Shown here piece by piece: positions 26,130 to 55,461 of a stretch of DNA of 55,461 nt. Every line of letters starts with the position of its first letter. Position 1 is the first letter of the stretch. Origin of the DNA: a virus (taxonomy: Duplodnaviria; Heunggongvirae; Uroviricota; Caudoviricetes); the IMG/VR virus record IMGVR_UViG_3300025011_000017. One strand, 5' to 3'. Both the position numbers and the translations under genes were made by a program. The notes under the pieces were generated by a model, which searched no databases, was not told where the DNA came from, and was given only the letters and a program-made list of their open reading frames with translations.

Positions 26130-26330
26130 ATGCAGAAATTCTTTCTTATTTGTTTTGAAAATACTACGAAAGCAGTAGATATTATCCAAGCAAATTCTGA
26201 AAATGAAGCTATACAAAAATTTGCAAGTAATAGAAACGGAAATCTACATGAAGAAAATGGTATATTGTATTATAAACTTCCAAAATCAAATTATCGTTTA
26301 TATGCACTAAATAATAATCATGTAAGATAG
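26130..26330 (+). CDS. Hypothetical protein
   Basis: Promoter, RBS GGAGG. Confidence 0.65.
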   Translation: MQKFFLICFENTTKAVDIIQANSENEAIQKFASNRNGNLHEENGILYYKLPKSNYRLYALNNNHVR

Positions 26331-26362
26331 AATCCAGTTTCTATAATGAAAGGAGAATAATA

Positions 26363-26557
26363 ATGCAAAAAATCAATGAATATTCGAAGTTAATGCACTT
26401 TCAAACTTTTTTGTTTGATGATACGGATGAAGGATTTAATGAAATGGTAGAACATGAAGTAAAAATGAAATCTGAAGGATATGATATTGTAAATACAAAG
26501 TTGCAGGACGGTAAGCGTAGAGTTCATTATGTTAAAAGCAATATATTAGAGGGATAA
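26363..26557 (+). CDS. Hypothetical protein bounded by two ATARAA-N6-TTYTAT sites
   Basis: RBS AAAGGAG. Confidence 0.65.
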   Translation: MQKINEYSKLMHFQTFLFDDTDEGFNEMVEHEVKMKSEGYDIVNTKLQDGKRRVHYVKSNILEG

Positions 26558-26921
26558 AATACAATTTTTATAGCAGGTTTTATCATCCTGCTTATTTTTT
26601 TAAGTAAATTCATGATATTATAATATAAAGAAGAATTCACCTTTATATTATAATATCATGAGAATATATGTATTGACATATTTAGTTTAATATGATATAT
26701 TTATATAAAGAAGATTGAAAGAGAGGGCAAGGATAAAATATGATTGGAAGTACTAAAATTGGTGAATATGCACGAACGATTGAAATGTTAATGAAAATGA
26801 CAGATAAATCTAAAAAGGATGTTGCTTTGATATTATATTTTTTATACGATTCTCAATATAAGAGTTTAGATTTGAAGACAATGGCTGACTTAATCACAAA
26901 CAAACAATTGTAAATCATAAA

Positions 26922-27281
26922 ATGAAAGAGGTTATGAAAATGGAAAAACTAAAAGTTACTAAAAGGGAAATGAAAAATAGGTATAATCGAATTGTTAAAA
27001 TTGGTTATTGTGACGCTCAATATTTACTTACTTATGAAAACCCCATAGCTTATAGCACAAGATCAGAAGGGTGGGCGTGTGATTATTACGACATTGACGG
27101 AATATTGATTTCCACTGGTTACACTCCTTTAGATGATAAAAATATGAAGCATGATTTTAATCTTCTTCAAGAGTATGAGCAGAAGGCCAGAGTCATTGTA
27201 TTAGGCCAAGAAGTGCATGAAGAACAAAGGGAAAAAGTAACACAATTATTAAAGCAATTTATCAATGAAATTACGCTATAA
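26922..27281 (+). CDS. Hypothetical protein
   Basis: IGYCDAQYLL...YST...GWACDYY. Confidence 0.7.
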   Translation: MKEVMKMEKLKVTKREMKNRYNRIVKIGYCDAQYLLTYENPIAYSTRSEGWACDYYDIDGILISTGYTPLDDKNMKHDFNLLQEYEQKARVIVLGQEVHEEQREKVTQLLKQFINEITL

Positions 27282-27513
27282 AGGTAATAGGCAGGAGAAA
27301 AATCCTGCCCATTACTTTTAGGAGGATTTAAAAGATGGATTATGACAGCAAAAGAGATAAGCAAGCTGAATTGCTATTCACTGGAAAATGCGAAATTAAG
27401 AAAACTGAATTGGATGATTTTAAAAACTATCTAATTAAAACAAAAATAGCATTTTCATTTACCCAAGACAATCAAAAGTGCATTTTTAAATTAATTTAAG
27501 GAGGGAAATATTT

Positions 27514-27705
27514 ATGGATTTTAAAGACGCTATTCTTGATGGCAAACAAAAAATATTGGCATTTCAAGATGATGATGATGTATGTATTTGCAAAGAGTGT
27601 AGACAAGAAGTTGATGCTACATTAATCTGCATGAAGTGTTACAAAGAAATATGTCTTTCTTGCGCTCATATTAGTGGAAAAATACTTTGTTCAGACTGTA
27701 AATAG
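27514..27705 (+). CDS. Cys-rich zinc-binding protein
   Basis: Four CxxC; RBS GGAGG. Confidence 0.65.
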   Translation: MDFKDAILDGKQKILAFQDDDDVCICKECRQEVDATLICMKCYKEICLSCAHISGKILCSDCK

Positions 27706-27745
27706 AAAAGAAGGGACATTAAAACCCTTTAAAAGGAGTGGTAAA

Positions 27746-27985
27746 ATGAATATTGACAATATTGATAAATTGAAGTCTGAGGAAATGAAAAAATTACACG
27801 CTGAAAAAGAAGCATATGTAGATCATTACGAAGAAGAACAGAACAATTTTATTAATGCAATGACTGAAAAATATAATGTTAAAACTCTAGATGATTTTAG
27901 AAAACTTGCTAGTCTTAGAATATTTCCTGATTCTGTTAGTTTGGTATTCGCTTTTAAAAGATTTATGGATATAAAAGACAAATAA
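27746..27985 (+). CDS. Hypothetical protein
   Basis: RBS AAGGAG. Confidence 0.6.
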   Translation: MNIDNIDKLKSEEMKKLHAEKEAYVDHYEEEQNNFINAMTEKYNVKTLDDFRKLASLRIFPDSVSLVFAFKRFMDIKDK

Positions 27986-28337
27986 AATCATGTTTCTATT
28001 ACCTAAATAAAGGAGGGGAAGATCATATCTACTAAAAATGATTTAATTGAAAAATTATTTAGTCCATATATGTTATTTGGAAGAATGAAAAAAGGGACTG
28101 AAAAAGCTGAAATTATTAAAAAGGACTTGAAAAAACTTTCTATCGATACTTTATTAGAAATGATACTTTATGGAGAAAGACAACATTAGATTATAAATCC
28201 AATTTCTATAACGAGGCTAATATCCTCGTTATATTTTTAAAATAAAAATTTAATATTAAAATATATAAAAATAATTATATTGACAATTTTGTATATAAAG
28301 TTTATAATTTAAAATAAAAAAGAAAGGACAAGTAAAT

Positions 28338-28529
28338 ATGTGGAGATTAAAAAATATTGCAATGATATATTTAGGTAGTTTCTTTGCTTCACTTGGAATA
28401 TTTGGTACTATTAAATCTTTTAGTATGTTAAATATCTTAATTATTACCATTATTAATGGAACATTTTTTACTGCTCTTGGCTTTGTTGGTGAAAAATTAT
28501 TAACTTTTAAAGGAGAATGCTTAAAATGA
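28338..28529 (+). CDS. Small membrane protein
   Basis: Two hydrophobic helices. Confidence 0.55.
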   Translation: MWRLKNIAMIYLGSFFASLGIFGTIKSFSMLNILIITIINGTFFTALGFVGEKLLTFKGECLK

Positions 28530-28795
28530 GTACAAGTTATGGAGTTCACGGAATTAAACCTGCTGGTGATAAATGGCATAATATGAAGGCTGTTTATGAA
28601 GCTTGTATTTTTGCAAACGTAGAGGTTCCTAAAACTGTATGGGATTTCTTTGGCAATGAAGAACCTGATGATTTAGGAGTTAAAGTTAAACTCGAACCTA
28701 TCATTGAGCATGGCGATGGAGAATGTAATTATATAATCGATTTAACTAAAATTGACAAAAATATTCAACTCATTGTATTTTCTGCATCATGGTAA
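28517..28795 (+). CDS. Hypothetical protein
   Basis: RBS AAGGAG. Confidence 0.65.
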   Translation: MLKMSTSYGVHGIKPAGDKWHNMKAVYEACIFANVEVPKTVWDFFGNEEPDDLGVKVKLEPIIEHGDGECNYIIDLTKIDKNIQLIVFSASW

Positions 28796-29143
28796 AAAGA
28801 GGGAAAGCCCTCTTTTACTTTTTAATTTCATATTATAATATCATTTATTTATCTATGTCAATATAAATAAATATATGATATTAAAATATTAAAATAATAC
28901 TATATTGACATTGAAAATTCTATATGATATAGTAAGATAAATCAAAAAGAAAGGATTTGAAAGTGTTTACCCTCTTTTAGAAGGAGGTGCATTATGTTTA
29001 TTATAATTTTTATTTTTTTAATTGTTTGGATAATTTTATGTGGTTATAAAACATAAATATTTTCTGATAAATGTATTGACAAATATGCAGTAATGTATTA
29101 TACTTAGGATATTAGGAAAACAGATTTAAAGGAGTGGATTTTA

Positions 29144-30160
29144 ATGTTTACTCATACCCAAATGAACGTAACCGCGAAATGGTTTGCTAGAAATGAAGGA
29201 AAATTAAACTTCAACCATGTTATCCAACGCAATAAGGTCTGGACTCATTCCCAAAAAAGCAAGCTCATTCATTCTGCAATGGTTGGTTATCCTGTTCCTG
29301 ATTTTTACGTTGTCGAGCTTAACGATGACATTTTATGGTTTCTTGATGGCAAGCAACGTGGAACGTCATTCATCGAATTCATAAAAGGTGGCTTCGAACT
29401 TTCTAAAGATACTCCGCCAGTGGAAATTGCCGATGGAGAATGGCTTGAGGTAGCAGGAAAAAACTTTCTAGAATTGCCCGAAAATTTGAGGGATGAAATT
29501 AAGGACTGTGGCCTAAAAATCCATAAGTACAAAAATATGAAGGAACATGAAATATCCGAACTATTCCTTCGTCTTAATGGTGGCACACCGCTAACAAAAA
29601 TTCAGATCACAAGAGTAATTGCAGGAACAACTTTTATGGAATTTGTTCGTGCTGTAGCGGAGCAAAAATTCTTCCGCGAATTAATTGTGATATCAGATAA
29701 CGCCAGAAACAAATCCGTAGACGAAGATTTAATTCTTCAAACTATGTCTCTGGTATGTTCTGGAGATAAGTTCACAAGCTTTTCTGGCGATGATGTCCGT
29801 AAATTCGCTGAACAAAATAAAGAAGGCGTTTCCGAAGAAATGCAAGAAGTGATTTTTCATACAACCCTATATCTTGAAGAAGCTATTTCTGAAAAGCATA
29901 AAAAGCTTATCAAAGTAAATGTGCCAATCTTGTTCAATGTGGCGATTACAGCCCAAAAAGACAATGTTCCTGCCAAAGCTTTCGGAGAATGGTTGTTTAA
30001 TTTCCTTGATAATTACGCTCCTGGGGGAGAATATGGTAGTCACTGTTCGACTAAAACCGCAACAAAAGAGAACGTTTTAGGTCGCTTAAAAGCAATGACG
30101 AAGGACTATAATAACCTAATCGGAAAGTTCGTTGCAAAAACTCAGCAAGCCGCAAAATAA
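29144..30160 (+). CDS. DUF262 (ParB/Srx-like) domain protein
   Basis: QRNKVW, LIHS...GYPVP, LDGKQR, LFLRLNGG. Confidence 0.85.
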   Translation: MFTHTQMNVTAKWFARNEGKLNFNHVIQRNKVWTHSQKSKLIHSAMVGYPVPDFYVVELNDDILWFLDGKQRGTSFIEFIKGGFELSKDTPPVEIADGEWLEVAGKNFLELPENLRDEIKDCGLKIHKYKNMKEHEISELFLRLNGGTPLTKIQITRVIAGTTFMEFVRAVAEQKFFRELIVISDNARNKSVDEDLILQTMSLVCSGDKFTSFSGDDVRKFAEQNKEGVSEEMQEVIFHTTLYLEEAISEKHKKLIKVNVPILFNVAITAQKDNVPAKAFGEWLFNFLDNYAPGGEYGSHCSTKTATKENVLGRLKAMTKDYNNLIGKFVAKTQQAAK

Positions 30161-30876
30161 GGACTGTTAAATCAGTCCTTTCTTTTTGTATTTAAATGTG
30201 AAATAAATCACGTAATTATATTTTAATATCAATAATAATACTAATTATTATATTTAAATATAAACAATTAACCTTATTGACATTAAATCAAAAGTGGTAT
30301 ATAATGAGGTAATATTGAAAAGGAGGCTGATTTTCAAAGTGGCTCGTTGTAAAATATGTGGTAATGAGTTTAATTTGAAAAATGATAGTCCAGTTATAGT
30401 TTGTAAAGAACCGTTTTGTGTTTTTGAAATGACTGAAAGGATTATGAATAAAGAGCGAAGTAAAAAGCTAAAGTTTATAAGGAGATAAAATGAAAAAAGT
30501 AATTGTAGATTTTTTGCCAGATTGCGATATTTGCAAAGATAATGGCGAAAAATCTAAAGCAAATTATGATGCTAGGACAATTTCTGGAGTAGGGGGTGTT
30601 TAATAATTGTTTGAAGTAATTAAATTAAATGAGGACGAAATTCTTAAAGCGTGTATACTATATCTTTATGAAGAAAGGGCTATTTGTGCTGATAATGCAA
30701 AAATAGTTGTGAATAGAGATTTAATTGTTTCTGTAGAAATTGTAAGAAGCGAATAAGAAGAGAAATCTTCTTATTTTTTTATGCTAAACTATTATATTAA
30801 AATACTACATAAAAACTATATTGACATTGATCATATATTTTGATAAAATAAGTTAAATGAAAAAGGAGTTGAAGGA

Positions 30877-31356
30877 ATGAAGAATTTAGTGTTTGTGTAT
30901 GGTTCTTTGCTTGAAGGGTTGCACAATCATAGTGTATTAGGTAAGCATAAAAAATTGGTTGGAACTGGAAATATCAAAGGATTTAACATGTGGTCAATCA
31001 ACGATGCGTTTCCTGCTATAATGCCAGTAAGAAAGGGAATTATAGTTGGGGAAGTGTATGAGGTTGATGATGAAACTATGGTTGATCTTGATCGTTTAGA
31101 AGGTAATGGATTTATGTATCAACGCGAATTAGTATTTGTAAGAATGAAAGATAGTGAATTAATTAGAGCTTGGATTTATGTTTATATACGTCAAGATATC
31201 TCTAAAGGAATATGTCCATTTATTCCGAATGGAGACTGGAGAACGTATTTAGATATTATACACTCTAATCCTCCAATAATTGATATCAAAGAAAATGGCA
31301 AGGAGATAATTATTATTGATGGTGCAAAGCGTAGTCAGTCTCTAATGAAAGGATGA
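30877..31356 (+). CDS. Gamma-glutamylcyclotransferase (AIG2-like)
   Basis: FVYGSL, GEVY, LDRLEG, AWIY, GDW. Confidence 0.9.
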   Translation: MKNLVFVYGSLLEGLHNHSVLGKHKKLVGTGNIKGFNMWSINDAFPAIMPVRKGIIVGEVYEVDDETMVDLDRLEGNGFMYQRELVFVRMKDSELIRAWIYVYIRQDISKGICPFIPNGDWRTYLDIIHSNPPIIDIKENGKEIIIIDGAKRSQSLMKG

Positions 31357-31967
31357 TTATAAATGGCAAATACTATTTGGTTTGAAAAAATACTTAATAA
31401 ATTAAGTGATGATGAATTAGAGATTTTTATTAATACTCTTGAAAATATTTCTAATGAAAGGATTATTAAAATTATACAGAAAGTTAGAGGATAATAATAA
31501 AATAGTTCTATAGCAGGAGTTATCCTGCTTTTTGTTTCACAAATAAACTATCGTATTATAATATGTAAGATTAATTATATTGACTTTTTAGATTTAGATG
31601 ATATAATGTTAATAACGAATAAATTGATAACTTACTGAACGCTAAGTAAGGGAAAGAGGGATTTTTTTATGAAATATTTTATTAAAATGGATATCAATTC
31701 TCAACTTAAAGAATATCATGATTGTTTGAATTATTGTAAAGGTGCAGAAGATGTTATAAATGGAAAAGCTACTCCTGAAGAGGTAGCTAAAAATAATCCG
31801 TTTATCCAAGATATGAAACGTATTTTAGAAGAAAAAGGTGTAATTTAGACGTGTGGTTTATCTGCGCTTTTATACTTTGAATTATATTATAATATCTAAA
31901 AATAATTATATTGACACGTAGTGATCTTGGTGATATAATTAAAATAATAATGAAAGGAGTTTTAATT

Positions 31968-32366
31968 ATGAAATTAATTACCAATGAATCTTTAGTTTCA
32001 CCTTGCATATTTAAAAGAAAAGCTGATTCAAAGTGGGAGAAGGGTCTAGTATTTGATTCTGGCGATGCAGGTATTATTGATATGAATGGTAATATTCCTC
32101 CTGAAGAAAAAGGTATTTTTAATTGGATAAACGTATCTGAGCACACCACTTCCGATATGATCAAATTACTCTCGTTTGCAAATGTTCAAATTGATAAAAA
32201 CAAATATTCTAAAACTTGTGTTGCAAATTGTAATACTGATAAATGCAGTAAACAAAAGGGTTATAAATGTAAATGCATGGATTGTGAGCATGAGTCTGAT
32301 ACAGTTTGCTTAGCTACTAAGGAGGATACTTGTCCCTTATTTGGTTGTCCTAAATATGAGATATAA
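31968..32366 (+). CDS. Hypothetical protein, Cys-rich C-terminus
   Basis: RBS AAAGGAG. Confidence 0.65.
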   Translation: MKLITNESLVSPCIFKRKADSKWEKGLVFDSGDAGIIDMNGNIPPEEKGIFNWINVSEHTTSDMIKLLSFANVQIDKNKYSKTCVANCNTDKCSKQKGYKCKCMDCEHESDTVCLATKEDTCPLFGCPKYEI

Positions 32367-32399
32367 GAATTTAGCCTTTATATTTAGAAGGGAGATAGA

Positions 32400-32696
32400 A
32401 TGATGGTAAAAATAGAGATATTTAGAGTTGAATGTAAAAATGGTATTGGAACTGAACTGGAAAGGAAAGAGGAAACAGTTTTAAAGCTAAACGAAACGAT
32501 GATTGAAACACCGATAAAAAAAGTGTATTTAGCTCAAATCCAATATCCATTTGAAAATGGAGATTTTACTCCAATTGGTATTTATTCTTCAAGAGAAAAT
32601 GCTCAAAATGCAATAGACAAAAAAATTGATAGTTCTACTTATGATAAATCTATGTTGTCTAGCGATATTGATGAATATATACTTGATCAAGAATAA
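32400..32696 (+). CDS. Hypothetical protein
   Basis: RBS; GIYSSRENA motif. Confidence 0.65.
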   Translation: MMVKIEIFRVECKNGIGTELERKEETVLKLNETMIETPIKKVYLAQIQYPFENGDFTPIGIYSSRENAQNAIDKKIDSSTYDKSMLSSDIDEYILDQE

Positions 32697-33017
32697 AATG
32701 CGATTTTTATTATTAAGGAGGGAATATGAATAAGAAAGAAAAGTTTAAAAATGCTGTAGAGATTTTTAAAAATTCAGAACAAACATCAGAGGATTATCTA
32801 AATTTAATTATAGTTAGTATAAGCGTACTTAGATTTGGTGATGGATTATTATGGAGCGATATTGAAGAGATATTAAATGAAGTTATAAATAAATAGCGGA
32901 GTGATCCGTTATTTTTCTTTTATAAAATCATCATATTATAATATAGTAAAATAATTATATTGACGTATGTTATACATTATGATATACTTGAAGAAGTTAA
33001 ATAAAGGAGGTTAAATT

Positions 33018-33272
33018 ATGAAGTGTACAGCATGTGGTAACGAATGTTTTGAAGATGAAATATATCCGCAAGCAGTATTTTGGAATGATGAAAAGTGTAT
33101 CTGTGAAGAATGCTCAATAGATTTCGAAGAGATTAACGGAGTAATTCAATTTAGACAGGATTTGATTGACGATGGGTGCGTAGAACCAGTTTTCAAAGAA
33201 AAGACGATGGAGTTGTTGAAAATGAGTCGTATGTATGGAACTAAAGGAGCGTGGGAGTATGCCAAAATTTAA
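33018..33272 (+). CDS. Zinc-ribbon protein
   Basis: CTAC...CEEC; RBS GGAGG. Confidence 0.65.
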   Translation: MKCTACGNECFEDEIYPQAVFWNDEKCICEECSIDFEEINGVIQFRQDLIDDGCVEPVFKEKTMELLKMSRMYGTKGAWEYAKI

Positions 33273-33995
33273 AGAGACTAAATATATGCTTATTTTTAAT
33301 CAAGAGCAAGGTGTTTGGGAAAGAGTTGTGGAATGGACTAATAATTACCGCAAACTTCACAAAAAACCAATGGTACGAATGAGGAGTATTTATAAGGTAT
33401 GGTTAGGCAAAATTAAGTAGATATAGAATACGGTTTTTATTGCTAAAGGAGGTAAAACTAGTGATAATAAGCATACAAGTAGGTGAGCATAAAATACATG
33501 GAATAACGGAAAAATGCTATTCTATTGATGGGATTTGTGACAAATGTGGTTCATTTACAACGAAACTAACAACTAAATTTCCAGATGCCAAAAGTGGTCT
33601 ACATTGTCTGAAATGTATCGGAAAATAGAGGTATAAAATTCGGATTCTATAACTAAATGGAGGTATAAGTATGAAAAAGATAGTTTCAACTACCTTAATT
33701 GTTTATGATGAAATGAATGTCTTTTACAAAGAACTAGAGAGAAATATTGGTATTAATCAGGCTAAAGGTGAAGAGGTTGAAATTCAATATTCTCACAATT
33801 CCGTTGGAAACTCTTTTTCTGCTTTAATTTTAGGAAGGAAAGAAGTATAAAATTCAGGTTCTATTATTTAGCAGGTAAAACCTGCTTTGTTTTTTATTTA
33901 AATATAATCATATTATAATACTAATTAATATTTGCATTGACCATAAAGATAAAATAATATATAATATAGATAGTAAAAAGAAGGGGGCGAGTTGT

Positions 33996-34187
33996 ATGAA
34001 ACTTGAAATATTAGATGGAATATGGCAAGTACCAGTATATTCATCAGGCGGAGGAACTATTTGGTATAAAACTGAAGCGTTGACTTCCGAAGAAGCTAAA
34101 GAGAAAATTAAAATATTTATTGAGGGAAATCCTTATCTCTCAATGGCTAATAACATGGATGTTGTTCTATTAGAAATAGTTAGGTAA
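33996..34187 (+). CDS. Hypothetical protein
   Basis: Promoter and RBS. Confidence 0.6.
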   Translation: MKLEILDGIWQVPVYSSGGGTIWYKTEALTSEEAKEKIKIFIEGNPYLSMANNMDVVLLEIVR

Positions 34188-34665
34188 AATAAAAGCTTTA
34201 TATTAAAAGGAGGATAAAATGGAAGCTAGGGAATTGATATTAAAATTGGAATTATTGAAATTCAAAGTTGAACAAGGTATGAAAATTCACACCAATGAGA
34301 TTGACGATCTTGTAAATTATGTTGAGTATTACTTTGTGTAAGAATAAAATTTGATTCTATATTGCAAGGAGGCTAATTATGAATGAATTTGAAAATTGGT
34401 TAAAAGAAAGCTTTCAAACTCTTAAAGATGCTCTAAAAGAGACTAATGAAAAAGAAATGATTAAAGATAGACTTTACATGATGAATTTAGTATTAACTCA
34501 ATTAAATCAATTCACAAAATAGAATGGTTCTAAAATTATTTCAAGACAGGTTTACCTGTCTTGTTTTATTTAGTAAAAACAGTATATTTTAATATTAAAT
34601 TAAATCAAGTTTGACACAAGTGTAATAAAATGATATAATAAAAAGAAAAAGGAGTTGCTTATTAA

Positions 34666-36137: not shown

Positions 36138-36311
36138 ATGAAGAAAACTATTGGTATAATTAAACAAATTGATCTTGTTAAAAATTCGGCTAATAAGTTA
36201 AATAAATCCATGGAAGTAGTAAGGCAAGGAGTCGGCATACATAAAAGTAAGAAGGGTTACAGGCGAAGTAATAATAGAAAGGAAATTCTATTGTATTTTA
36301 ATATAGTATAA
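36138..36311 (+). CDS. 57-aa basic protein (not in ORF track)
   Basis: RBS AAGGA; GVGIHKSKKGYRR. Confidence 0.55.
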   Translation: MKKTIGIIKQIDLVKNSANKLNKSMEVVRQGVGIHKSKKGYRRSNNRKEILLYFNIV

Positions 36312-42969: not shown

Positions 42970-43902
42970 ATGGAAATGGAATCTATATTATTAAAAATGG
43001 AGGAATATCCTAAGCCTATTGGAGAATGGTCTAACGAGGATGCAGATAATTTCCTTAAAAATATTATTAAATCTACTTCGGCAAATACTATTCAATTATA
43101 TATCCATCTAATGCGTCAAGCTCATAAGTTTGTTTGCAATATACAGGGGAAAAATTATGTACAATTAAATCCTACCCATAGTTTAGAAGATTATGTAGAT
43201 TTAAATATGTTGCGTTCAGTAACATTGACAGAATACGAGTTCAATCAAGTAAGAAAAGAACTTAAATATGTTGATAATGATACTGAAGGGAATTACCGTG
43301 ATGTTGCTTTATTTGAATTAGCGTGGTATGGATTGAGTTCAGAAGAAATTAAATTTTTAAAAAAGGATGATATTAAAGAAACGGAGAAAGGAATTATTAT
43401 TGAAATATATAAAACTAAGAAAGGAGAAAAAGATAAAAAAGAACCAACAAGAGTACTAAATAGATCTATTATTATTGATGATCCTGAAATTGTAAAAGAT
43501 ATCTTAATGGCGAAGAAAGAAAATAGATATTATAAAGTTAGAAATTATGAAAGTAAAGATTTAATCATAGTAGATGAGATATATTATATCCCCAGTCCTT
43601 ATTTAATCAGAGGAATTAATAATGTAAAAGCAGATAAATTAAAAGAAAGGAAGGATAAACCAATTGCTCATATAGGTATGTTGATGTATAAACAACTAAA
43701 AAAGATTCAACTACCAGAAATTAATATAGATTTTGAACATCTTTCTGTTGAAGATATACGAAGATCAATGTTAATTAATCTTATTTTAAAAGAAGAGATT
43801 CCTATCTATTCTCTTAAAGTTATGCTGAATAAAAAAAGAGATGGAGATTTAATTTGGTTAAAATCAATTACGGATAAAATGGTTAAAGCAGGATTATTGT
43901 AA
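42970..43902 (+). CDS. Degenerate tyrosine-recombinase-fold protein (YopR-like regulator candidate)
   Basis: RDVALFELAWYGLSSEEIKFLK and EDIRRS boxes; catalytic Arg, His and Tyr not recognisable. Confidence 0.65.
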   Translation: MEMESILLKMEEYPKPIGEWSNEDADNFLKNIIKSTSANTIQLYIHLMRQAHKFVCNIQGKNYVQLNPTHSLEDYVDLNMLRSVTLTEYEFNQVRKELKYVDNDTEGNYRDVALFELAWYGLSSEEIKFLKKDDIKETEKGIIIEIYKTKKGEKDKKEPTRVLNRSIIIDDPEIVKDILMAKKENRYYKVRNYESKDLIIVDEIYYIPSPYLIRGINNVKADKLKERKDKPIAHIGMLMYKQLKKIQLPEINIDFEHLSVEDIRRSMLINLILKEEIPIYSLKVMLNKKRDGDLIWLKSITDKMVKAGLL

Positions 43903-46583: not shown

Positions 46584-46650
46584 AAAGGAATTTTTTATTA
46601 TGATACATGGTATTTATAAAGAATTTAGTGCTATTGAAAGGAGAAATATA

Positions 46651-46845
46651 ATGGAAATTATATTATCTAGAGAAAATGTTATGGATATAGTTCTCGAACA
46701 CATGAGAAATTTAGGATATCCTATAACTGGAAATATAATTACTCGTTGTGATAGGAATTCGTTGATACATGTTAGAGTTGAAGTTAGTGACCTTAGGTGT
46801 GTACTACCATCACAAAAACTCGTATTTGGGATAAAAGAGCGATAG
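46651..46845 (+). CDS. Hypothetical protein
   Basis: RBS AAAGGAG. Confidence 0.55.
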   Translation: MEIILSRENVMDIVLEHMRNLGYPITGNIITRCDRNSLIHVRVEVSDLRCVLPSQKLVFGIKER

Positions 46846-46881
46846 AATTGGGGTTTTATACCTCATAGAAAGTAGGTAAAA

Positions 46882-47214
46882 ATGAAAGATTTAATTGATT
46901 GGAAATTTGACTTTGGTGAAAATATAATTATTATCAAAGTGCAAAGTTTAAAGTGTAAATCTATAAAATATGAACATGTATATACTACTAATGAAAAATA
47001 CCCATATTGTCATGAAGATGTGGTTGAAATGAAGAAAATTCGTAATGAATTGCGTGAAAAAGTGTCAAAAGAACATGAAAATATGCTTAGTGATTCAGAA
47101 CGAACTTTAAGGGATTTAATTTACGAAAGCGAACATTCTAAAGGTATTTTGACAACAGAAAAATTTATTAAGGAATACAGGAAAGAATTAATAAAATTAC
47201 TTAAAAGACTATAG
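46882..47214 (+). CDS. Hypothetical protein bounded by two repeat sites
   Basis: RBS AGGT. Confidence 0.65.
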   Translation: MKDLIDWKFDFGENIIIIKVQSLKCKSIKYEHVYTTNEKYPYCHEDVVEMKKIRNELREKVSKEHENMLSDSERTLRDLIYESEHSKGILTTEKFIKEYRKELIKLLKRL

Positions 47215-47263
47215 AATGTGAGTTCTATCTCCATAAAATATCTTATAAAGGAGAATTAGCAAA

Positions 47264-47500: not shown

Positions 47501-47537
47501 GTTGGTGTAATCATAATGGAAGGAAGTCTAAATTTAA

Positions 47538-48182
47538 ATGAAATATGTTAAATATCCAAGAACTTTACATTTACCATGGTCTTTAGGTGTAACTAATGAT
47601 GATAAAGTTCTGAAAGATATATCACATTTTATTGGAAAAAGAGTGATTGTTACTGAGAAAATGGATGGAGAGAATTCAACTCTCTATCCAGATTATCTTC
47701 ATGCTAGATCAATTGATAGTAAGGATCATCCTTCTAGACATTGGTTAAAACAGTTGCATAGCTATGTAAAAGATGAAATACCTGAAGGATGGAGAGTATG
47801 TGGGGAGAATGTATTTGCTGAACATTCTATAAAATATGACTCTTTGTCTGCACATTTTATAGTATTTTCTATTTGGGACAATATGAATATCTGTTTATCT
47901 TGGGACGAAACTATTAAATGGATAAAATATCTAGGGTTGAATATTGTCCCAATTCTTTATGATGGAATATGGGATGAAAAGAAAATTAAAGAATGTTTTT
48001 TAGGTAAGTCAAAATTTGGGCAGGAACAAGAAGGATATGTAGTTAGACTTGCAGATTCATTTCATTATGATGGTTTTAGTAAAAGAGTTGCTAAATTTGT
48101 TAGAAAAAATCATGTACAGACAGATGATCATTGGATGCAAAAAGAATTAGTTGTAAATAAATTAATTAAAGGAGTGAATTAA
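47538..48182 (+). CDS. RNA ligase family protein
   Basis: KYPRT, TEKMDGEN, GEN, EGYVVR, AKFVR. Confidence 0.9.
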   Translation: MKYVKYPRTLHLPWSLGVTNDDKVLKDISHFIGKRVIVTEKMDGENSTLYPDYLHARSIDSKDHPSRHWLKQLHSYVKDEIPEGWRVCGENVFAEHSIKYDSLSAHFIVFSIWDNMNICLSWDETIKWIKYLGLNIVPILYDGIWDEKKIKECFLGKSKFGQEQEGYVVRLADSFHYDGFSKRVAKFVRKNHVQTDDHWMQKELVVNKLIKGVN

Positions 48183-48432
48183 TTGCCAGATATTATATAG
48201 AAACAAAATATAAAACTAATGATAAGAGGGAAGAGGTAAAAAATATATGCCTGACATAGCTAAATGCGAAGCTAAAAAATGTCCTAATAAATAAGGAGAG
48301 TTGTTATAGATATACAGCTATCCCTTCATATTATCAATCATATTTTGTTAACTTAGATTGGGGAGATGGAGAAGAAAATCCTTGTCCTTATTATTGGCCT
48401 AATGTATAAACAGTTATTGAGAGGTGAAATAA

Positions 48433-48639
48433 ATGTCGTTTATTAATATAAATAAAGTCACTTTAAATCATGAGAATGACGATGTTAGAAATCGCATGGG
48501 CGATGTAATGCTTTTATGTGCTTCACTTGTTTATGATGATCTGGTAAGAATAAAATACAAAGAAGCATTAAATGGTTTAAGCATGTTGAAGTCTTCTATT
48601 AATTCTCTAGAATATGTTTTAATGAAAGAATGTGATTGA
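48433..48639 (+). CDS. Hypothetical protein
   Basis: RBS GAGGTG. Confidence 0.55.
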   Translation: MSFININKVTLNHENDDVRNRMGDVMLLCASLVYDDLVRIKYKEALNGLSMLKSSINSLEYVLMKECD

Positions 48640-48974
48640 TAATGAGCAAAGAAGGATTACATTATCCTTTATATGTCGAAAGACCTAGTAAACAAATTGA
48701 TATAACCAAAGATCAATTTTACAAGCTTAGTTATATGGGATTAGCGTGTTTATGGTGTAGTTATGGTTTGGCTTTTCATTATCTTGAAAATGGAGATATT
48801 AAATTGTTTACTCATAATATTAGTTTGGTAGATAAATGTATGAATAATCATAGATTTAAAGGTATAATTTGGTACGAAAATGCGTCTACGGAGATGTATA
48901 TTTGCTATATACTTAAAGAATCAAAATTATTTAATACAATTATTAAATATTTTAGTGATTATTTAATGAAGTAG
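48636..48974 (+). CDS. Hypothetical protein
   Basis: Coupled ORF. Confidence 0.55.
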   Translation: MIMSKEGLHYPLYVERPSKQIDITKDQFYKLSYMGLACLWCSYGLAFHYLENGDIKLFTHNISLVDKCMNNHRFKGIIWYENASTEMYICYILKESKLFNTIIKYFSDYLMK

Positions 48975-49007
48975 AATTTTAATTCTATATTAATGGAGGA
49001 AGATAAT

Positions 49008-49862
49008 ATGAAATTAAAATGCAATTGTTGTGATGGTATTTATAATTCTCTTGATATTCATTTTACAAGTTCTTGTGACAATAGTTGTTCTCATTGTGTA
49101 GATAAATGTTTCAATGGTTTAAATATTTCTAAACCAGATGTTAAAGCAATCGTTAATACAATTATAAATAATCGAGAGGGTATAGATGATGTATTATTTC
49201 TTGGAGGAGAACCATGTTTATATCTTGATGAATTATTAGATTGTGTTTCACAAATTAAACAAAAAACTTCATTAAAAGTATTTGTTACTACTTCTGTTCC
49301 TAAAGTATGTAAAACAAATTATGATAAGTTTTTAAGATTATTAGATTTGCTTGATGGAATAAATTTATCAGTTCAACATTATAAAGAAAATGTGGCTGAT
49401 AAAATAAGAAATACAATTTCAACATATGATCGACAAGCTTTTTATAATTCTCTTCCTCAAAAGGATAAAATACGAATAAATTTAAATATTGTTAAGCCAT
49501 ATTTATATACTAAAGAAGATATTAGTGAATGTTTGAGACATTATGATTCAATGGGATTTAATTCTATTAAATTATCTGAAATACAACATGGTAAGGATGT
49601 ATTTGTTTCATTTGAAAATGTGTTTGGAATCTCTTTAAAATCACCATATTCGGATGGATGTCAAACATATTTAAATATGAATGAAATATTAGAAGGATTC
49701 AAAACTCCAGTTTTGTTAAAAAGATCATGCTTTATGTGCGAAGATACTTTAAAAGCCACTTTTAACGATGGTATTAAAGTAATTAGAAATTTATTTAAAC
49801 CAGTCGAAAATAAATATGGTGTAATTTATGAAAATGGGTTATTAACGAAAGGATGGATATAA
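49008..49862 (+). CDS. Radical SAM protein
   Basis: CDNSCSHC, GGEP; extra Cys CNCC and CFMC; RBS GGAGG. Confidence 0.92.
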   Translation: MKLKCNCCDGIYNSLDIHFTSSCDNSCSHCVDKCFNGLNISKPDVKAIVNTIINNREGIDDVLFLGGEPCLYLDELLDCVSQIKQKTSLKVFVTTSVPKVCKTNYDKFLRLLDLLDGINLSVQHYKENVADKIRNTISTYDRQAFYNSLPQKDKIRINLNIVKPYLYTKEDISECLRHYDSMGFNSIKLSEIQHGKDVFVSFENVFGISLKSPYSDGCQTYLNMNEILEGFKTPVLLKRSCFMCEDTLKATFNDGIKVIRNLFKPVENKYGVIYENGLLTKGWI

Positions 49863-49864
49863 TT

Positions 49865-49960
49865 ATGTACACAAAATTAGTAAAAATGATAGTTAAATTA
49901 CAAAGGCAGATGGCAGGACATTGTGGAGGAAGTTCTAGTGGTAGCGGTCATTGTTCGTAA
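49865..49960 (+). CDS. 31-aa putative RiPP precursor (not in ORF track)
   Basis: MYTKLVKMIVKLQRQMAGHCGGSSSGSGHCS; RBS AAAGGA; 2 nt after the radical SAM stop. Confidence 0.7.
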   Translation: MYTKLVKMIVKLQRQMAGHCGGSSSGSGHCS

Positions 49961-49980
49961 AAAATTAAAGGAGGTTTAAT

Positions 49981-50343
49981 ATGAAAATTGTAAAAAATCT
50001 TGTACAAAATAAAGAACCTATTTATATAGTTAAAATGTGTGGAGATTATAACGATGGAGATTATTCGTATTCTGAAGAAAAATTTACCGAATCAGAATTT
50101 AATGAAGTATCAGAGTGTTTATTAGAAGTCAATAAATTAGTAGGAAGAGATTATTTTAATGGGAATTATGGTTATGAAGATGTAGATGAGCATATTAGAG
50201 AGTTAAAAAGAAAATACAAAGTGGACTTTGATTTTCCTCTTGGAGATTCTGTATTAGATTATCCAATTTATAGTTTAGAAAGTTTAGAAATTGAATATAT
50301 TGATATCGATGGAAGGATATATGATATTGTTTTAGAAGACTAA
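49981..50343 (+). CDS. Hypothetical acidic protein
   Basis: RBS GGAGG; DYNDGDY. Confidence 0.7.
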   Translation: MKIVKNLVQNKEPIYIVKMCGDYNDGDYSYSEEKFTESEFNEVSECLLEVNKLVGRDYFNGNYGYEDVDEHIRELKRKYKVDFDFPLGDSVLDYPIYSLESLEIEYIDIDGRIYDIVLED

Positions 50344-50365
50344 TGTAATATTTAATTTTGAAAGG

Positions 50366-50644
50366 ATGATAAAAATGGAAAAAGATGTAGTAGTAGGTCA
50401 ATTAGCTCAAAATATTAAAGGTAAAGAATGGTTATATTGTGTTGTTACTAAAGTTTTTGATGATAGATGCGAAGTAATAAATGAACGCGGAAAAATTACA
50501 ATGGTAATGTTAAATAATACTGACGAGGAATTTACGGAAAAACATATTTCTGATGGCGAGGTACACTTTCTTTATCATAATAATAAACCTGTAATGGCAA
50601 AGAAAAGTATATTTGGAAGATATAAATTTGAGGTAAATAAGTAA
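50366..50644 (+). CDS. Hypothetical protein
   Basis: RBS AAAGGA. Confidence 0.6.
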   Translation: MIKMEKDVVVGQLAQNIKGKEWLYCVVTKVFDDRCEVINERGKITMVMLNNTDEEFTEKHISDGEVHFLYHNNKPVMAKKSIFGRYKFEVNK

Positions 50645-50677
50645 TAAAATTCCGATTCTATAACAAAAAGGAGTAAA

Positions 50678-51001
50678 ATGATGGAAAATATTAAATTTAT
50701 TACAGATTATAATTGTTCGGATATTCAATCACATTTCTCTAAATATTACGAAAGATTAACAAGATCATGTGAATTAAAACTTGTAGAAATTCATATGTGT
50801 GAAAATGGATTTGAATTGTTCAAAAAGAGCGTAAAAGAGTGTAATTGTAGAGGTTTATTGACAAAAAGTGGCTATATAGGCTATTTTAGTGGGATTAATA
50901 TTTTCTTTACAAAAGAATGTAACGATTTTGAGATTAATCAAGCAAAACTTATTTATTCCAATGGAAGCACTGAAGTCATAAATGTCTTTGAATTAGATTG
51001 A
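50678..51001 (+). CDS. Hypothetical protein bounded by two repeat sites
   Basis: RBS AAGGAG. Confidence 0.65.
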   Translation: MMENIKFITDYNCSDIQSHFSKYYERLTRSCELKLVEIHMCENGFELFKKSVKECNCRGLLTKSGYIGYFSGINIFFTKECNDFEINQAKLIYSNGSTEVINVFELD

Positions 51002-51210
51002 GATAAAATGCAAATTCTATAACTAAATAATTGTTTACAAGAGTAAAGTAATGTGATATAATATTCTTGAAAGGAGGAGGTTTTTATGTATTTTGGAATT
51101 AGTTTTGGAACGTTTGCGGAGTGGGTGTTAATATCTTTTGGAACTGGATTTGGAATCGGTACAGGTTTAGTGCTATATTTAAAAAGAAAGAAAAAGGGAG
51201 GTAATTAAAA

Positions 51211-51654
51211 ATGTTAATTGAAAAAATTAAATCTGATGCTCTTGAAGCACGTAAAGCTCGTAAAACTGAAGTCGCAACATTGTTAACAACTCTATATTCT
51301 GAAGCTTCTATGATAGGAAAGAATAGTGGAAATAGACAATCTATCGACAAAGAAGTATTACAAGTCATTGAGAAATTTGTTAAGAATGCTAATGAAGTTA
51401 AAGATATTCTCTTAGAATCTGGGAAAGATGCGAGTAATGTAATTTTTGAAATTGAAACATTAAGAGCATATCTTCCCAAACAAATGTCGCGTGACGAACT
51501 TCAAGAAGTAATAAAGTATATCATAAAAAGACTTGAAGAAAGTGGTAAACAAATAGGTAATGTTATGAGTAACCTTAAAGCTAATTACGGTGGATCATAT
51601 GATGGGAAAATGGCAAGTGAGATTGTAAAAAAGGAGTTAGCTAATGATATATGA
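51211..51654 (+). CDS. GatB/YqeY domain protein
   Basis: EIETLRAYLPKQMS, IGNVMSNLK...YDGK. Confidence 0.88.
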   Translation: MLIEKIKSDALEARKARKTEVATLLTTLYSEASMIGKNSGNRQSIDKEVLQVIEKFVKNANEVKDILLESGKDASNVIFEIETLRAYLPKQMSRDELQEVIKYIIKRLEESGKQIGNVMSNLKANYGGSYDGKMASEIVKKELANDI

Positions 51655-52015
51655 TTATAAAGATTTTGCAACGATATTACTAAAACAAGGGAAAAGAATA
51701 TCAAAAAACGGACAAAAATTACTAAGAAAGATAATGGAATGGAAAAAAATTGAGGATCAAAGGAGTAAATGAAATGAATCTAAAAATACGTCTTACATTA
51801 GCCGATATTGGTAAATTAATATTTGGAGGAAGTGTTTTAGTAACAGATCCGTATACTAATAATATCTATAGTATTTTAAAAGGAGAAGATACCGCAATTA
51901 CTAAAAATTAAGAACAAAATGTATTGACATATGTAAAGAATTAGTATATAATTATTAAAAGAAGTAGAGGTTAGTAAATTCTGATCTCTACTTTAATATA
52001 AAGGAGAAAAATTTA

Positions 52016-52516
52016 ATGAAAAGAAAAATTGTAATATATGCAGGTAGTTTTGATCCTATAACTAATGGTCATCTAAATATTATTGAACAAGCTTATGATA
52101 TGTTTGATGAAATAATTGTTGGAGTATTAATTAATTCACAAAAGAAATCTTTATTTACTATCGAAGAAAGAATAAATATGATTAATGAAGTTGTAAATCC
52201 ACTTCCTGATATTAAAGTGAAATCATTTGCAGGTGCTTTAATTGATTTTGCAAAGGAAGAAAATGCGTGTGCTATAATAAGAGGTTTAAGAAGTATATCA
52301 GACTTTGAAAGTGAATTACAACTAGCTTTAGTTAATAAATCGATCAGTAATGGAATATTAAATACTATATTTTTAATTCCAGATATTAATTATCAATTTA
52401 TTAGTTCTTCAATGGTAAAAGAGATTGCTAGATTAGGTAAAAAGATTTATGATTTTGTTCCTACAAGTGTAGCTGTAGAACTATACAAAAAAATAGGAGC
52501 GATTAAAAATGATTAA
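52016..52516 (+). CDS. coaD: Phosphopantetheine adenylyltransferase
   Basis: YAGSFDPITNGH, RGLRSISDFESE, ISSSMVKE. Confidence 0.93.
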   Translation: MKRKIVIYAGSFDPITNGHLNIIEQAYDMFDEIIVGVLINSQKKSLFTIEERINMINEVVNPLPDIKVKSFAGALIDFAKEENACAIIRGLRSISDFESELQLALVNKSISNGILNTIFLIPDINYQFISSSMVKEIARLGKKIYDFVPTSVAVELYKKIGAIKND

Positions 52517-52913
52517 TGTAGAGTTTTTAATGATTTCATATATTATTGGTTTATTTATGGATTGGATTCCTCAGTGGCAATGGCAAGCTGTAAATAAATC
52601 TAAATGGGGAAAGCAAGATAATAAATTATTAAGCTTTTGGGCAGTTTCAAGTCATTCGTTTATTTACGCTATATTAACCACAATTGTAACATTGTATTTA
52701 ATTAAAGATTTTTCAAGTCTTTATGTTGTATTTTTTACATTACTTATTTCTCATATAATTATTGACACTAGAATTATTGTAAAGTATATCATGAGATTTA
52801 AAGGTCTGGCATGGGAGCAGATATATGATTATCAGAACTATGGATTTATGCACATTGGAATAGATCATAGGTTGCATGAAATTGTATTACTGGTATTAGC
52901 AATATTTGTATGA
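52509..52913 (+). CDS. DUF3307-like membrane protein
   Basis: DWIPQ...K, HSFIY, SHIIID, DHRLH. Confidence 0.7.
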   Translation: MINVEFLMISYIIGLFMDWIPQWQWQAVNKSKWGKQDNKLLSFWAVSSHSFIYAILTTIVTLYLIKDFSSLYVVFFTLLISHIIIDTRIIVKYIMRFKGLAWEQIYDYQNYGFMHIGIDHRLHEIVLLVLAIFV

Positions 52914-52939
52914 TTTTTTAATAATGAGGTTATATAAAA

Positions 52940-53200
52940 ATGAATAAAATTGTTACCACTGTGGATTGGATTTTATCTACATGGATTTTTCCAACATTTA
53001 ATGAAAAAGAAAAAATATATTATAGTTGCCCACGTATTATTAATGATCTGCTTAATGAAGGTGAAATAAGAATTAATGGTAATAAAATTAAAAGTCTTTT
53101 TCAAGAAGTATATGTAGGAGATATTGTCTACTATAATGGAAAAGAGCATTGTTTTGATAAGAATGATTTGTTATGTGCTTGGTTAGGTAATAAATTATAA
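52940..53200 (+). CDS. S4-like small protein
   Basis: LLNEGEIRING...VYVGD. Confidence 0.55.
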   Translation: MNKIVTTVDWILSTWIFPTFNEKEKIYYSCPRIINDLLNEGEIRINGNKIKSLFQEVYVGDIVYYNGKEHCFDKNDLLCAWLGNKL

Positions 53201-53288
53201 ACATTTAAATGATAAAATAGATATTTTATTTTTTATTATTAGAGAATTGTAGTATAAAAGTATAAGAGAGTATGAAGGAGGTTTAAAA

Positions 53289-53492
53289 ATGGAACAGTTA
53301 TTTAAAATTGAAGAAAGAGTAAGAGTTAATGGATGGTGTGGTTCTGCTTTAGGAGTAGTTACAGGTATTAAATGGATTTATCACAATCGACTGGAAGAAT
53401 ACACTTGGGGTTATAGTGTAAAATATGATGATAAAGATGCAGGATTTAGTTTTATTTACATTCCTGAAGGATATCTAAGAAAACTACAATAA
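53289..53492 (+). CDS. Hypothetical protein
   Basis: RBS GGAGG. Confidence 0.65.
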   Translation: MEQLFKIEERVRVNGWCGSALGVVTGIKWIYHNRLEEYTWGYSVKYDDKDAGFSFIYIPEGYLRKLQ

Positions 53493-53526
53493 AACACGCA
53501 TTTTATAACATATTAAGGAGGTATAT

Positions 53527-53793
53527 ATGATAAATTACGATGAATTATTAAACCAATGGGCAGAGAAGATATATCAAAAAGCAGATACTTATAGAGATAA
53601 AGGGATATATGAGGAAAGTGGATCTTGGAAAGATGGTTATTATAAAGGTTTAGCAGAAGCTTATATAATGGCGATTACTGAATTAACCATGTTAGAGAAA
53701 AAGAGTAAATCAACTATATTAAAAGAAACAAATAAGCCTAAACGACCAAAACCATTTGATCTTATTAATAATCGTGGCGAAGTTATAAACTAG
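53527..53793 (+). CDS. Hypothetical protein
   Basis: RBS GGAGG. Confidence 0.65.
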   Translation: MINYDELLNQWAEKIYQKADTYRDKGIYEESGSWKDGYYKGLAEAYIMAITELTMLEKKSKSTILKETNKPKRPKPFDLINNRGEVIN

Positions 53794-53935
53794 GGATATC
53801 TGATAAATCGTTTAAAATATCGGATGGTAGAAAAAAGGGTCGAATAAATGGAGATAGGAAAAATGTTAATGAAGAGTGGATAAATGTTTTTTAGGTATAA
53901 AATCGCCATTTTAATATTAGAAAGGAATGATATAA

Positions 53936-54178
53936 ATGAGCAGACCACGACCAAATGAGATACGAGCAGAGCGTGAAGCACATGAAAGAGCAATAGAGCA
54001 GTATAGGTATGATCCATTTGATCCACACAAAAATTCACCTAAACGTACAATAATCGAAGATACTCCTGTCAAGAAGAGGGATGATACCTTAGATGACTAT
54101 CACAAACATCATTGTAGAGTGTGTGGTAGATATTGTCCATCATCAGTAAGTCCAAGAGGAACATGTGATTTTTGCTAA
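53936..54178 (+). CDS. Hypothetical protein with C-terminal zinc finger
   Basis: RBS AAAGGA; CRVC...CDFC. Confidence 0.6.
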   Translation: MSRPRPNEIRAEREAHERAIEQYRYDPFDPHKNSPKRTIIEDTPVKKRDDTLDDYHKHHCRVCGRYCPSSVSPRGTCDFC

Positions 54179-54217
54179 AAGAAATAGAATGATAATTCTA
54201 AAACTAGGAGGGATACG

Positions 54218-54404
54218 AATGTTATTAGTTAAAAGCTATCAACGACATATAATACACGCTGTAAATGAATCTGAGTCTATAGGGCGATTCCTCCCTCTTA
54301 CTATTTGTGGAAAAAGACCTAAACAAACTACTCACGAAGGAAGCAACTCGGATATAACTTGCAATGAATGTAAAACTATTCTAAAGCAGATAATAAAACT
54401 ATAA
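54218..54404 (+). CDS. Hypothetical protein (start approximate)
   Basis: RBS GGAGG before MLLVKS. Confidence 0.55.
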
Positions 54405-54587
54405 TTTGATAATTAAGAAGGAGTTTGATGCTATGAAGAAAATTATTGTCACAGAATTGGAATATATGCAGAGGTGGATTTTAGTAAAATAACTGAAATT
54501 GCGAAACGTAACGGATACGAAGTTGATGAAGATTTGGATTTAGTAGAAATAGAACGATAGTTTAATAGTCAGAAAGGAATTGATTGA

Positions 54588-54794
54588 ATGGATTTTGACA
54601 ATATGACAAAAGAAGAATTATTAAATTTTTTAAAAGAAAATTATATGAAATTAATTAATCCAATACCACATAGTCCAACATTTAAAGTTGGAAATTATTA
54701 CAGAGGTGAACAAACTGGAGAAGACGAGATAGAAGTATATGGAGATGTAATTTTATATTTAACATTTAAAGAAGCAGATGTATATTTTAGATAG
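54588..54794 (+). CDS. Hypothetical protein
   Basis: RBS AAAGGA. Confidence 0.6.
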   Translation: MDFDNMTKEELLNFLKENYMKLINPIPHSPTFKVGNYYRGEQTGEDEIEVYGDVILYLTFKEADVYFR

Positions 54795-54818
54795 TTCTAT
54801 AGAAAAGAGGTAATAAAA

Positions 54819-55010
54819 TTGGATAAAGAGATCAATATTGAGATAAGTTTTACTCCTCATCCTTGGGATAATGCTAAAAAACCTTACTTTTGGTGTATTT
54901 TAAAGTACAATACAACTTGGTATAATGCAGGGTGTGGTTGGGCTGAAAATCCTCAAATTGCTTGGGAAGAAGCTAATAAATATTATGAAAGATATATTAA
55001 AGCAAGATAG
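54819..55010 (+). CDS. Hypothetical protein
   Basis: RBS GAGGT. Confidence 0.6.
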   Translation: MDKEINIEISFTPHPWDNAKKPYFWCILKYNTTWYNAGCGWAENPQIAWEEANKYYERYIKAR

Positions 55011-55043
55011 AACCTTAAATCTATTGCGAAAGGGGTTATTAAT

Positions 55044-55346
55044 ATGGGTGAAGAGATTGCTATAAGAGAAATTGATCGTCTTAAACAAAAAATGGGTGAA
55101 GGAATTACCCTAGATGAAACATTATTTGAAGCACTAAATTGTAGTATTAAAGCACTTGGAAAACAAATACCAAATAAGCCAACTATTAAAACAATTAATG
55201 AAAAGGTAATAGATGTATTTTGTCCTACTTGCAACATAAAAATATTTAGATGTTTCCATGAAGAAGGTAAAGAAAAAACATGGAATTATTCTCAACAGTC
55301 TCATAAATGCTGTGTAGAATGTGGACAAAAACTAGGATGGGTATAA
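55044..55346 (+). CDS. Hypothetical phage protein with zinc ribbon, bounded by two repeat sites
   Basis: ALGKQIPNKP, CPTC, CVECGQKL. Confidence 0.7.
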   Translation: MGEEIAIREIDRLKQKMGEGITLDETLFEALNCSIKALGKQIPNKPTIKTINEKVIDVFCPTCNIKIFRCFHEEGKEKTWNYSQQSHKCCVECGQKLGWV

Positions 55347-55461
55347 AACCATAGTTTGGTTATTAAAAGGAGATTTGTAATGTTGACATTTGATGAGAGG
55401 TTTAAGAAAATTGAGAAGTATGTTAAATACCTATCCGATGAAGATTTCGGACAGTTACAGA

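Follow-up and report, generated by a model that had tools for sequence, protein, structure and literature searches.

The window analysed here, 55,461 nucleotides of a tailed virus of the Caudoviricetes (IMG/VR record IMGVR_UViG_3300025011_000017), is part of a contig of up to 183 kb from groundwater metagenomes and contains genes for PhoH, GIY-YIG, tRNAs, FtsK, Replic_Relax, DUF932 and an RNA ligase as well as many small genes. It also contains a repeated dyad, ATARAA-N6-TTYTAT, found mostly at gene ends and consisting of two inverted arms around a variable 6-bp centre (the spacer). We analysed these sites together with the gene exchange to which they appear to be tied, both in the window and in phage SPbeta and its relatives.

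Exact matches to the dyad number 18 in the window, compared with 0.60 ± 0.85 in shuffled sequences (largest shuffle, 5), and a chance origin was rejected on this count, in agreement with the sequence-only reading of the window, which had estimated fewer than one chance match. Matches with one mismatch are likewise in excess (34 versus 11.2 expected), and the excess is confined to a spacer length of 6 bp (23 copies versus 2–8 at other lengths). All 13 exact copies named in that reading were recovered, as were its near copies, those starting at 48971, 53897, 54184, 54393, 54549 and 55007 with one mismatch and those at 34184 and 55343 with two. Five more exact copies start at 22154, 22871, 23447, 36274 and 41759; the three leftward ones are probably genuine, and those at 36274 and 41759, which lie within open reading frames and have spacers beginning with a purine, are probably chance matches. 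Positions 1–22,000, the part with PhoH, the integrase and Relax/FtsK, contain no exact copy.

The stop codon (TAA or TAG) of the upstream gene lies within the left arm in 12 of the 21 sites listed earlier, where about 12 had been claimed, and six others lie 3–15 bp downstream of a stop codon. Downstream of the sites, which themselves contain neither a promoter nor a stem-loop terminator, comes a ribosome-binding site or a terminator, and upstream the stop codon. Its presence in the left arm suggests that sites and cargo have long been adapting to each other. In a logo of 38 sites, the weaker conservation outside the ATARAA-N6-TTYTAT motif consists of G at −3 in 55% and a pyrimidine at +20 in 98%, then T and A, and the full site looks like an element of about 11-6-11 bp with weakly conserved outer arm bases. 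This upholds the recombination-site geometry recognized at the outset, namely, inverted arms around a 6-bp centre. By contrast, the polarity that had been seen in the pyrimidine at the first spacer base does not stand: it is matched by a purine at the other end of the spacer in 17 of 22 curated sites, and since the spacer ends are thus mostly symmetric, the first base is no polarity signal. None of the 29 curated sites shares its spacer with another. Past the window end, a second assembly of this contig (the extension) adds seven sites. The cargo of a slot is one gene or several and at times includes a promoter and terminator of its own, rather than being limited to the single promoterless cassettes first envisaged.

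A dyad of the same design is found in SPbeta, where TAAAA-N6-TTTTA occurs in 34 copies. The SPbeta family comparison comprised 10 genomes, five of which (SPbeta and four relatives) were scanned whole and have 30–36 exact dyads each, compared with 1–2 for the control. In a de novo search the TAAAA dyad was the top spaced palindrome in SPbeta, Geobacillus E3, Bacillus PBC2 and a groundwater phage, and weakly so in C. difficile LIBA2945; in phage Amboise it was not found as the top motif. Arms are of the TAG..ATARAA type in the window and of the TCT..TAAAA type in SPbeta, where they likewise reach 11 bp. Consistent with the expectation that gene gain and loss would break at the sites, 133 of 458 homology starts and 94 of 477 homology ends in the ten genomes fall within the interval assigned to sites, which makes up 1.3% of the sequence. 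The starts cluster at the first base of the left arm and the ends at the final base of the right arm. Of the gene ends that carry a site, 78% are breakpoints, compared with 40% of those that lack one.

The spacer is usually kept when one flank is swapped: it is identical in 82 of 97 swaps with the same upstream flank and 86 of 105 with the same downstream flank (168/202, 83%), as opposed to 257 of 41,693 pairs (0.6%) of unrelated sites, the swap counts being descriptive because the pairs are not independent events. Identity shared by swapped pairs extends from about position −1 to 16, a 16-bp core; each outer arm stays with the flank to which it belongs. Furthermore, six spacers form four-gamete quartets, in which two upstream and two downstream flanks occur in every possible pairing, and therefore require a crossover inside the site. 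Spacer order is identical across all ten genomes, none of which has an exact-site duplicate, and a single address was found with seven different upstream and five different downstream flanks.

Swaps can also be followed among the window's own relatives, contigs of co-occurring or sister phages (L201, L325, L326, L327, L329 and L331) compared with the window; the source reads, four DNA runs of one groundwater study, were examined as contigs. L331, another strain from the same sample, is unrelated to the window over most of its length and has six spacers in common with the window and its extension, in the same order (TAGATA, CACGCA, CGATAG, CCTTAA, CCATAG and TAGTAA). Five of them pass a strict filter, a number reached in 1 of 20,000 null draws, two of the five being non-independent because both flank one shared block. 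This block of 317 bp (98.7% identity) begins with the first base of site 55343 and ends inside the following site, and the cargo of two slots (TAGATA–CACGCA and CCTTAA–CCATAG) is unrelated between the two phages. L329 and L331 have the upstream flank and gene and the spacer TGAAAG in common and different downstream genes, and L331 carries the spacer CAATAA twice, around three genes. Homology of L325 to the window sets in at the first base of site 54393, with a two-base spacer difference. In a sister phage (L326, L327), orthologous junctions have the same spacers as in the window, TGCGAT and TACGGT. Joints between contigs of the source runs fall at sites 54393, 54549 and 55343.

Laboratory recombinants between SPbeta and phi3Ts provide a further comparison. 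Going by Supplementary Table 1 of Dragos et al. (10.1101/2020.05.06.055103), homology amounts to 400 bp or more at 15 of the 17 junctions listed. With the published coordinates converted via one of the long junctions, the remaining two map to matched sites, N1 to TATTCC and junction 7 to TGCATA. On the SPbeta side, N1 starts exactly at the first base of an 18-bp stretch shared with phi3Ts at the TATTCC site, and junction 7 (30 bp) spans the TGCATA site in both parents. The authors do not mention the motif in the relevant passages. As far as the tabulated junctions go, this suggests that the sites act as joints without flanking homology and leaves the mechanism unnamed. In the laboratory hybrids Hyb1–3 and PP526179, crossovers lie within kilobase-long identical blocks, so that their position is unmappable.

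Collectively, these data make it highly probable that the sites are crossover points. Our reading as a whole, that they are the crossover points of a spacer-addressed gene-exchange system in SPbeta-like phages, we put at a probability of about 0.65. A Xer-type tyrosine recombinase would bind the arms, and strand exchange would require a matching 6-bp overlap, overlap identity being the usual requirement of tyrosine-recombinase core sites. Exchange would therefore take place between two phage genomes at the same address, in one cell, between a prophage and a superinfecting phage. One crossover would yield a hybrid phage and two neighbouring crossovers would replace the cargo of a slot, while unique centres would guard the genome against self-deletion or scrambling. 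We also lean, if only slightly, towards the broader proposal that SPbeta-like phages across Bacillota possess a dedicated, undescribed system of one tyrosine recombinase and about 30 orthogonal spacer-coded sites, which would partition the accessory genome into ordered slots that are exchanged between phages and would explain their mosaicism, with the window as a distant variant with its own arms. The searchable literature contains no description of the dyad, a scope that excludes Lazarevic 1999 and Brady 2023, where a mention is possible. The contribution of the window is a divergent arm type with strain-level slot swaps, together with the mapping of two laboratory junctions.

Catalysis by a tyrosine recombinase is likely, with a phage-encoded enzyme favoured over host XerC/D. 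Every motif-bearing genome that was checked encodes intact tyrosine recombinases, and in four genomes the TAAAA form is accompanied by a member of the YopP clade. The product of 7313–8245, encoded about 14 kb from the nearest exact site, is intact with all six catalytic residues (R-K-H-R-H-Y), and its best PDB matches are XerA, XerH and XerD; IntI4 matches only 60 residues. That this protein is the enzyme acting on the sites is possible, but we put it forward tentatively.

Several observations weigh against an address-coded exchange system or against these enzymes. Two-fifths of the gene ends that have no site are breakpoints as well, and much mosaicism occurs at other joints. About 10% of swaps have mismatched spacers, and the swap pairs are phylogenetically non-independent. 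The left arms of the window and L331 differ at the TAGTAA end of their shared block, a chimeric gene in the window is joined at 54464, away from the sites, and the radical SAM module described below moves among phages that are without this motif and have other junction sequences, its nucleotide identity there reaching 96%. As given in the published table, the phi3Ts coordinate of junction N1 falls 14 bp short of the site, in an A-rich tract. Moreover, by a rough count, about five of roughly a dozen collinear short stretches shared by SPbeta and phi3Ts are sites, and because sites are such a large share of the short collinear matches, the two laboratory junctions do not separate site-specific from microhomology recombination. 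As for the enzymes, 7313–8245 falls outside the YopP clade in the recombinase tree and its best annotated match (31%) is in phage Amboise, which is without such a motif, and YopP (SroD) is said to have been described as an auxiliary repressor by Brady et al. in 2023.

Microhomology recombination predicts both the keeping of the spacer and the mapping of crossovers to the 16-bp core equally well, and this is the core of an alternative that we consider unlikely, though the strongest of the rivals. In it, the dyads bind a dimeric phage regulator or DNA-organising protein, such as an SroD/SroE-like repressor, and the breakpoints are secondary, produced by relaxed single-strand annealing on 16–20 bp of identity where genes adjoin, for example by the Sak4-like YorG of SPbeta, with the spacer kept as part of the shared stretch. 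SPbeta-like phages have indeed turned integrase folds into repressors (MrpR/SroF; PMC10516654; window 42970), YopP and two relatives have H-x-x-K in place of H-x-x-R, and the laboratory hybrids contain short in-gene exchange patches away from sites. However, most sites lie between a stop codon and the next ribosome-binding site and not at promoters, and the known SroF/SPBRE box is a different element, a non-palindromic A-tract at about 10 promoters. The 11-6-11 size is that of a recombinase core site, and regulator binding offers no reason for a strictly 6-bp, genome-unique and order-conserved centre while the flanks turn over.

The sequence-only reading had itself favoured an integron- or Tn916-like system, in which promoterless cassettes are cut out singly as circles and integrate at any site whatever its core. 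The spacer-mismatched swaps would fit this, as would the resemblance among the neighbouring spacers at 54184–55343 and the two CAATAA copies of L331, which could be the footprint of an integrated circle. Nevertheless, we regard such a system as very improbable: spacers match in 83% of swaps, their order is conserved in ten genomes, no spacer is duplicated among the 29 curated sites or the exact sites of the SPbeta set, and there are no attC hairpins, no attI and no adjacent integrase. Even less probable is the other option raised at that stage, an RNA-level signal at gene ends, either a processing site or the site of an RNA-binding protein. The location between stop codon and ribosome-binding site, often overlapping the stop codon, would suit it, but the 28-mers are predicted to fold at just 0 to −4.5 kcal/mol, on which grounds a terminator or RNA hairpin was rejected, and Rfam gave no match for the sites. 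Furthermore, an RNA loop does not account for 6-mers that are specific to their position and mark DNA crossovers.

Among known systems, the proposed spacer-addressed exchange would work most like pdif modules and engineered cassette exchange. The pdif/dif modules of Acinetobacter plasmids also consist of many 28-bp sites with a 6-bp centre that bracket accessory genes; they are mobile, and recombination between sites on different molecules has been reported (PMC6449649). Their 11-bp arms and 6-bp centre fit the logos of the window sites, in which outer arm positions are weakly conserved, and site-bounded modules occur in different contexts in the window and SPbeta families. By contrast, pdif arms are asymmetric XerC/XerD boxes used by host enzymes on plasmids, whereas the phage arms are near-symmetric and lineage-specific, and the phage sites, about 30 to a genome, often include a stop codon and make up a series of addresses in fixed order. 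Compared with B. subtilis dif (the host's own dif may differ), only the inner 5 bp resemble one dif arm and no XerD-type arm is found. This chromosomal dif (PMC3025954) has the 28-bp, 11-6-11 geometry, and its inner left arm ends in TAGAA, as do about half of the window left arms, but dif exists in one copy, has an invariant centre and serves to resolve dimers, whereas the phages have dozens of sites with differing centres. Integrons, too, have recombination sites that bound accessory genes at gene ends, yet the phages are without attC hairpin, attI, Pc and IntI, and their order is fixed and exchange spacer-matched.

Boundary or linker sequences of lambdoid phages are likewise repeated intergenic elements for accessory-gene shuffling. 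So are the PeSL cassettes of T4-type phages, although PeSLs are long promoter–terminator repeats that recombine by homology and excise mini-circles (PMC2839356), whereas the sites described here share just 10–12 bp among themselves and are individually addressed. Within the same phage group, the SPBRE operator of SroF (MrpR) is a repeated intergenic AT-rich element with an integrase-fold binder, but it is a non-palindromic A-tract box of 15–26 bp, bound by a monomer at about 10 promoter sites (PMC10516654; 10.1101/2025.11.27.690993). Identity of the dyad with SPBRE was rejected, as the published box differs in sequence and number; in phi3Ts an SPBRE box can adjoin a dyad yet is distinct from it. 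Engineered cassette exchange with heterospecific lox or FRT sites relies on identical arms, different spacers and match-only exchange; it uses two or three spacers, whereas the phage system would be a natural version with about 30.

Phage mosaicism is usually ascribed to illegitimate or homologous recombination filtered by selection. If the spacer-addressed reading is correct, programmed, address-coded exchange would offer another explanation, one open to direct test in the model phage SPbeta. It would account for the spread of anti-defence and other small genes among SPbeta-like phages with gene order undisturbed, and multiplex DNA assembly would gain a recombinase whose natural orthogonal sites number in the dozens.

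Table 1. Sites, slots and recombinase-related genes in window coordinates. Site rows give the full 28-bp span (e.g. 26322..26349 for the copy starting at 26327) and have no strand assigned (.).
Feature	Position	Strand	Remarks
Site TCTCAT	22149..22176	.	exact; leftward part, adjoins promoter
Site CTTCAA	22866..22893	.	exact; leftward part
Site CTCCGA	23442..23469	.	exact; leftward part
Site CACGAA	26086..26113	.	one mismatch; copy 26091, additional to the earlier list
Site TCCAGT	26322..26349	.	exact; stop codon in left arm
Site TACAAT	26549..26576	.	exact; stop codon
Site TCATGT	27977..28004	.	exact; stop codon
Site TGCGAT	32688..32715	.	exact; stop codon; spacer also in sister phage L326
Site TACGGT	33418..33445	.	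exact; spacer also in sister phage L327
Site TTCGGA	33628..33655	.	exact
Site TTCAGG	33842..33869	.	exact; stop codon
Degenerate site TAAAAG	34179..34206	.	two mismatches; stop codon
Site TTGGGG	46837..46864	.	exact; stop codon
Site TGTGAG	47206..47233	.	exact; stop codon
Site TTTTAA	48966..48993	.	one mismatch; stop codon; just before radical SAM and peptide module
Site TTCCGA	50639..50666	.	exact
Site TGCAAA	50998..51025	.	exact
Site TAGATA	53207..53234	.	spacer also in L331, flanks unrelated
Slot TAGATA to CACGCA	53235..53483	+	67-aa gene; unrelated 79-aa gene in L331
Site CACGCA	53484..53511	.	stop codon; spacer also in L331, flanks unrelated
Site TCGCCA	53892..53919	.	one mismatch
Site TGATAA	54179..54206	.	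one mismatch
Site CTATAA	54388..54415	.	L325 homology begins at first base; L325 spacer differs at two positions
Site CGATAG	54544..54571	.	copy 54549; spacer assembly-dependent, CAATAA in two other assemblies of the same phage; common to L331, L329 and L325
Site CCTTAA	55002..55029	.	stop codon; spacer also in L331, flanks different
Slot CCTTAA to CCATAG	55030..55337	+	100-aa gene; unrelated 148-aa and 58-aa genes in L331
Site CCATAG	55338..55365	.	L331 homology restarts at first base (100%) and ends inside next site, TAGTAA, beyond the window
Xer-like tyrosine recombinase, short	7313..8245	+	complete R-K-H-R-H-Y set; candidate enzyme
MrpR/SroF-like integrase-fold protein	42970..43902	+	without catalytic residues; SPbeta-like marker, not a candidate catalyst

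We read the source phage as a large, SPbeta-like, MrpR-encoding phage whose host would be a low-GC Bacillota; the SPbeta-like assignment follows from the resemblance, in the tree as well, of 42970–43902 to MrpR, the integrase-fold repressor of SPbeta. None of the annotated phages matches the window at the DNA level, no relative of its integrase was found in IMG/VR, and the RNA-ligase loci compared are unrelated to it and without the motif. A scan of bacterial genomes returned 16 isolated single matches to the motif, probably due to chance, and yields no host assignment. Co-occurring phages of about 230 kb have single genes 70–87% identical to those of the window, with the dyad mostly missing. 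The window also has two minus-strand tRNA genes (471–622) and, at 4111–5925, an IS605/Cas12f-like TnpB adjoining a RAGATH-18 RNA; a sister phage is without TnpB at that position.

The chimeric gene mentioned above is a remnant at 54421–54548 whose parts derive from two genes seen in L325 and L331, and it may be a natural chimera or an assembly chimera of co-occurring strains. The spacer TCGCCA (window 53897) is the reverse complement of TGGCGA (L331:1345), which has a similar place in the order; either an inversion or chance could account for this. At 48993–49960, the radical SAM gene is followed by a 31-residue peptide with a C-terminal GHC-linker-GHC motif. This pair is conserved in many phage contigs with unrelated neighbours and is a candidate phage-borne module for a ribosomally synthesized and post-translationally modified peptide. 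Around it, other large phages (L204-L234 and L219-L225) show recurring junction sequences of their own where these genes adjoin their neighbours, perhaps further variants of the system with degenerate arms.

In the 7313–13364 region, the tyrosine recombinase is accompanied by a lipoprotein-like gene, a convergent M23 peptidase and a Replic_Relax and FtsK block, an arrangement conserved in sister phage L201. An integrase, a relaxase and an NTPase are annotated as neighbours in PBC2 in a similar way, a likeness from annotation only, because the FtsK and Relax proteins of the window gave no tblastn match in five reference phages. Upstream of the recombinase promoter, a one-mismatch dyad (7182–7199), with a similar one in the sister phage, may serve autoregulation or be a mere A/T run. 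Finally, a second dyad, ATATT-N2-AATAT, occurs in 31 copies (versus 4 at other spacings) between 14032 and 49678, e.g. at 26029, 28253, 31884 and 32933, often 27 bp before a TTGAC −35 box. Judging from this placement, it probably serves as a repressor operator in a recurring promoter cassette, and the MrpR-like protein may be the repressor that binds it.

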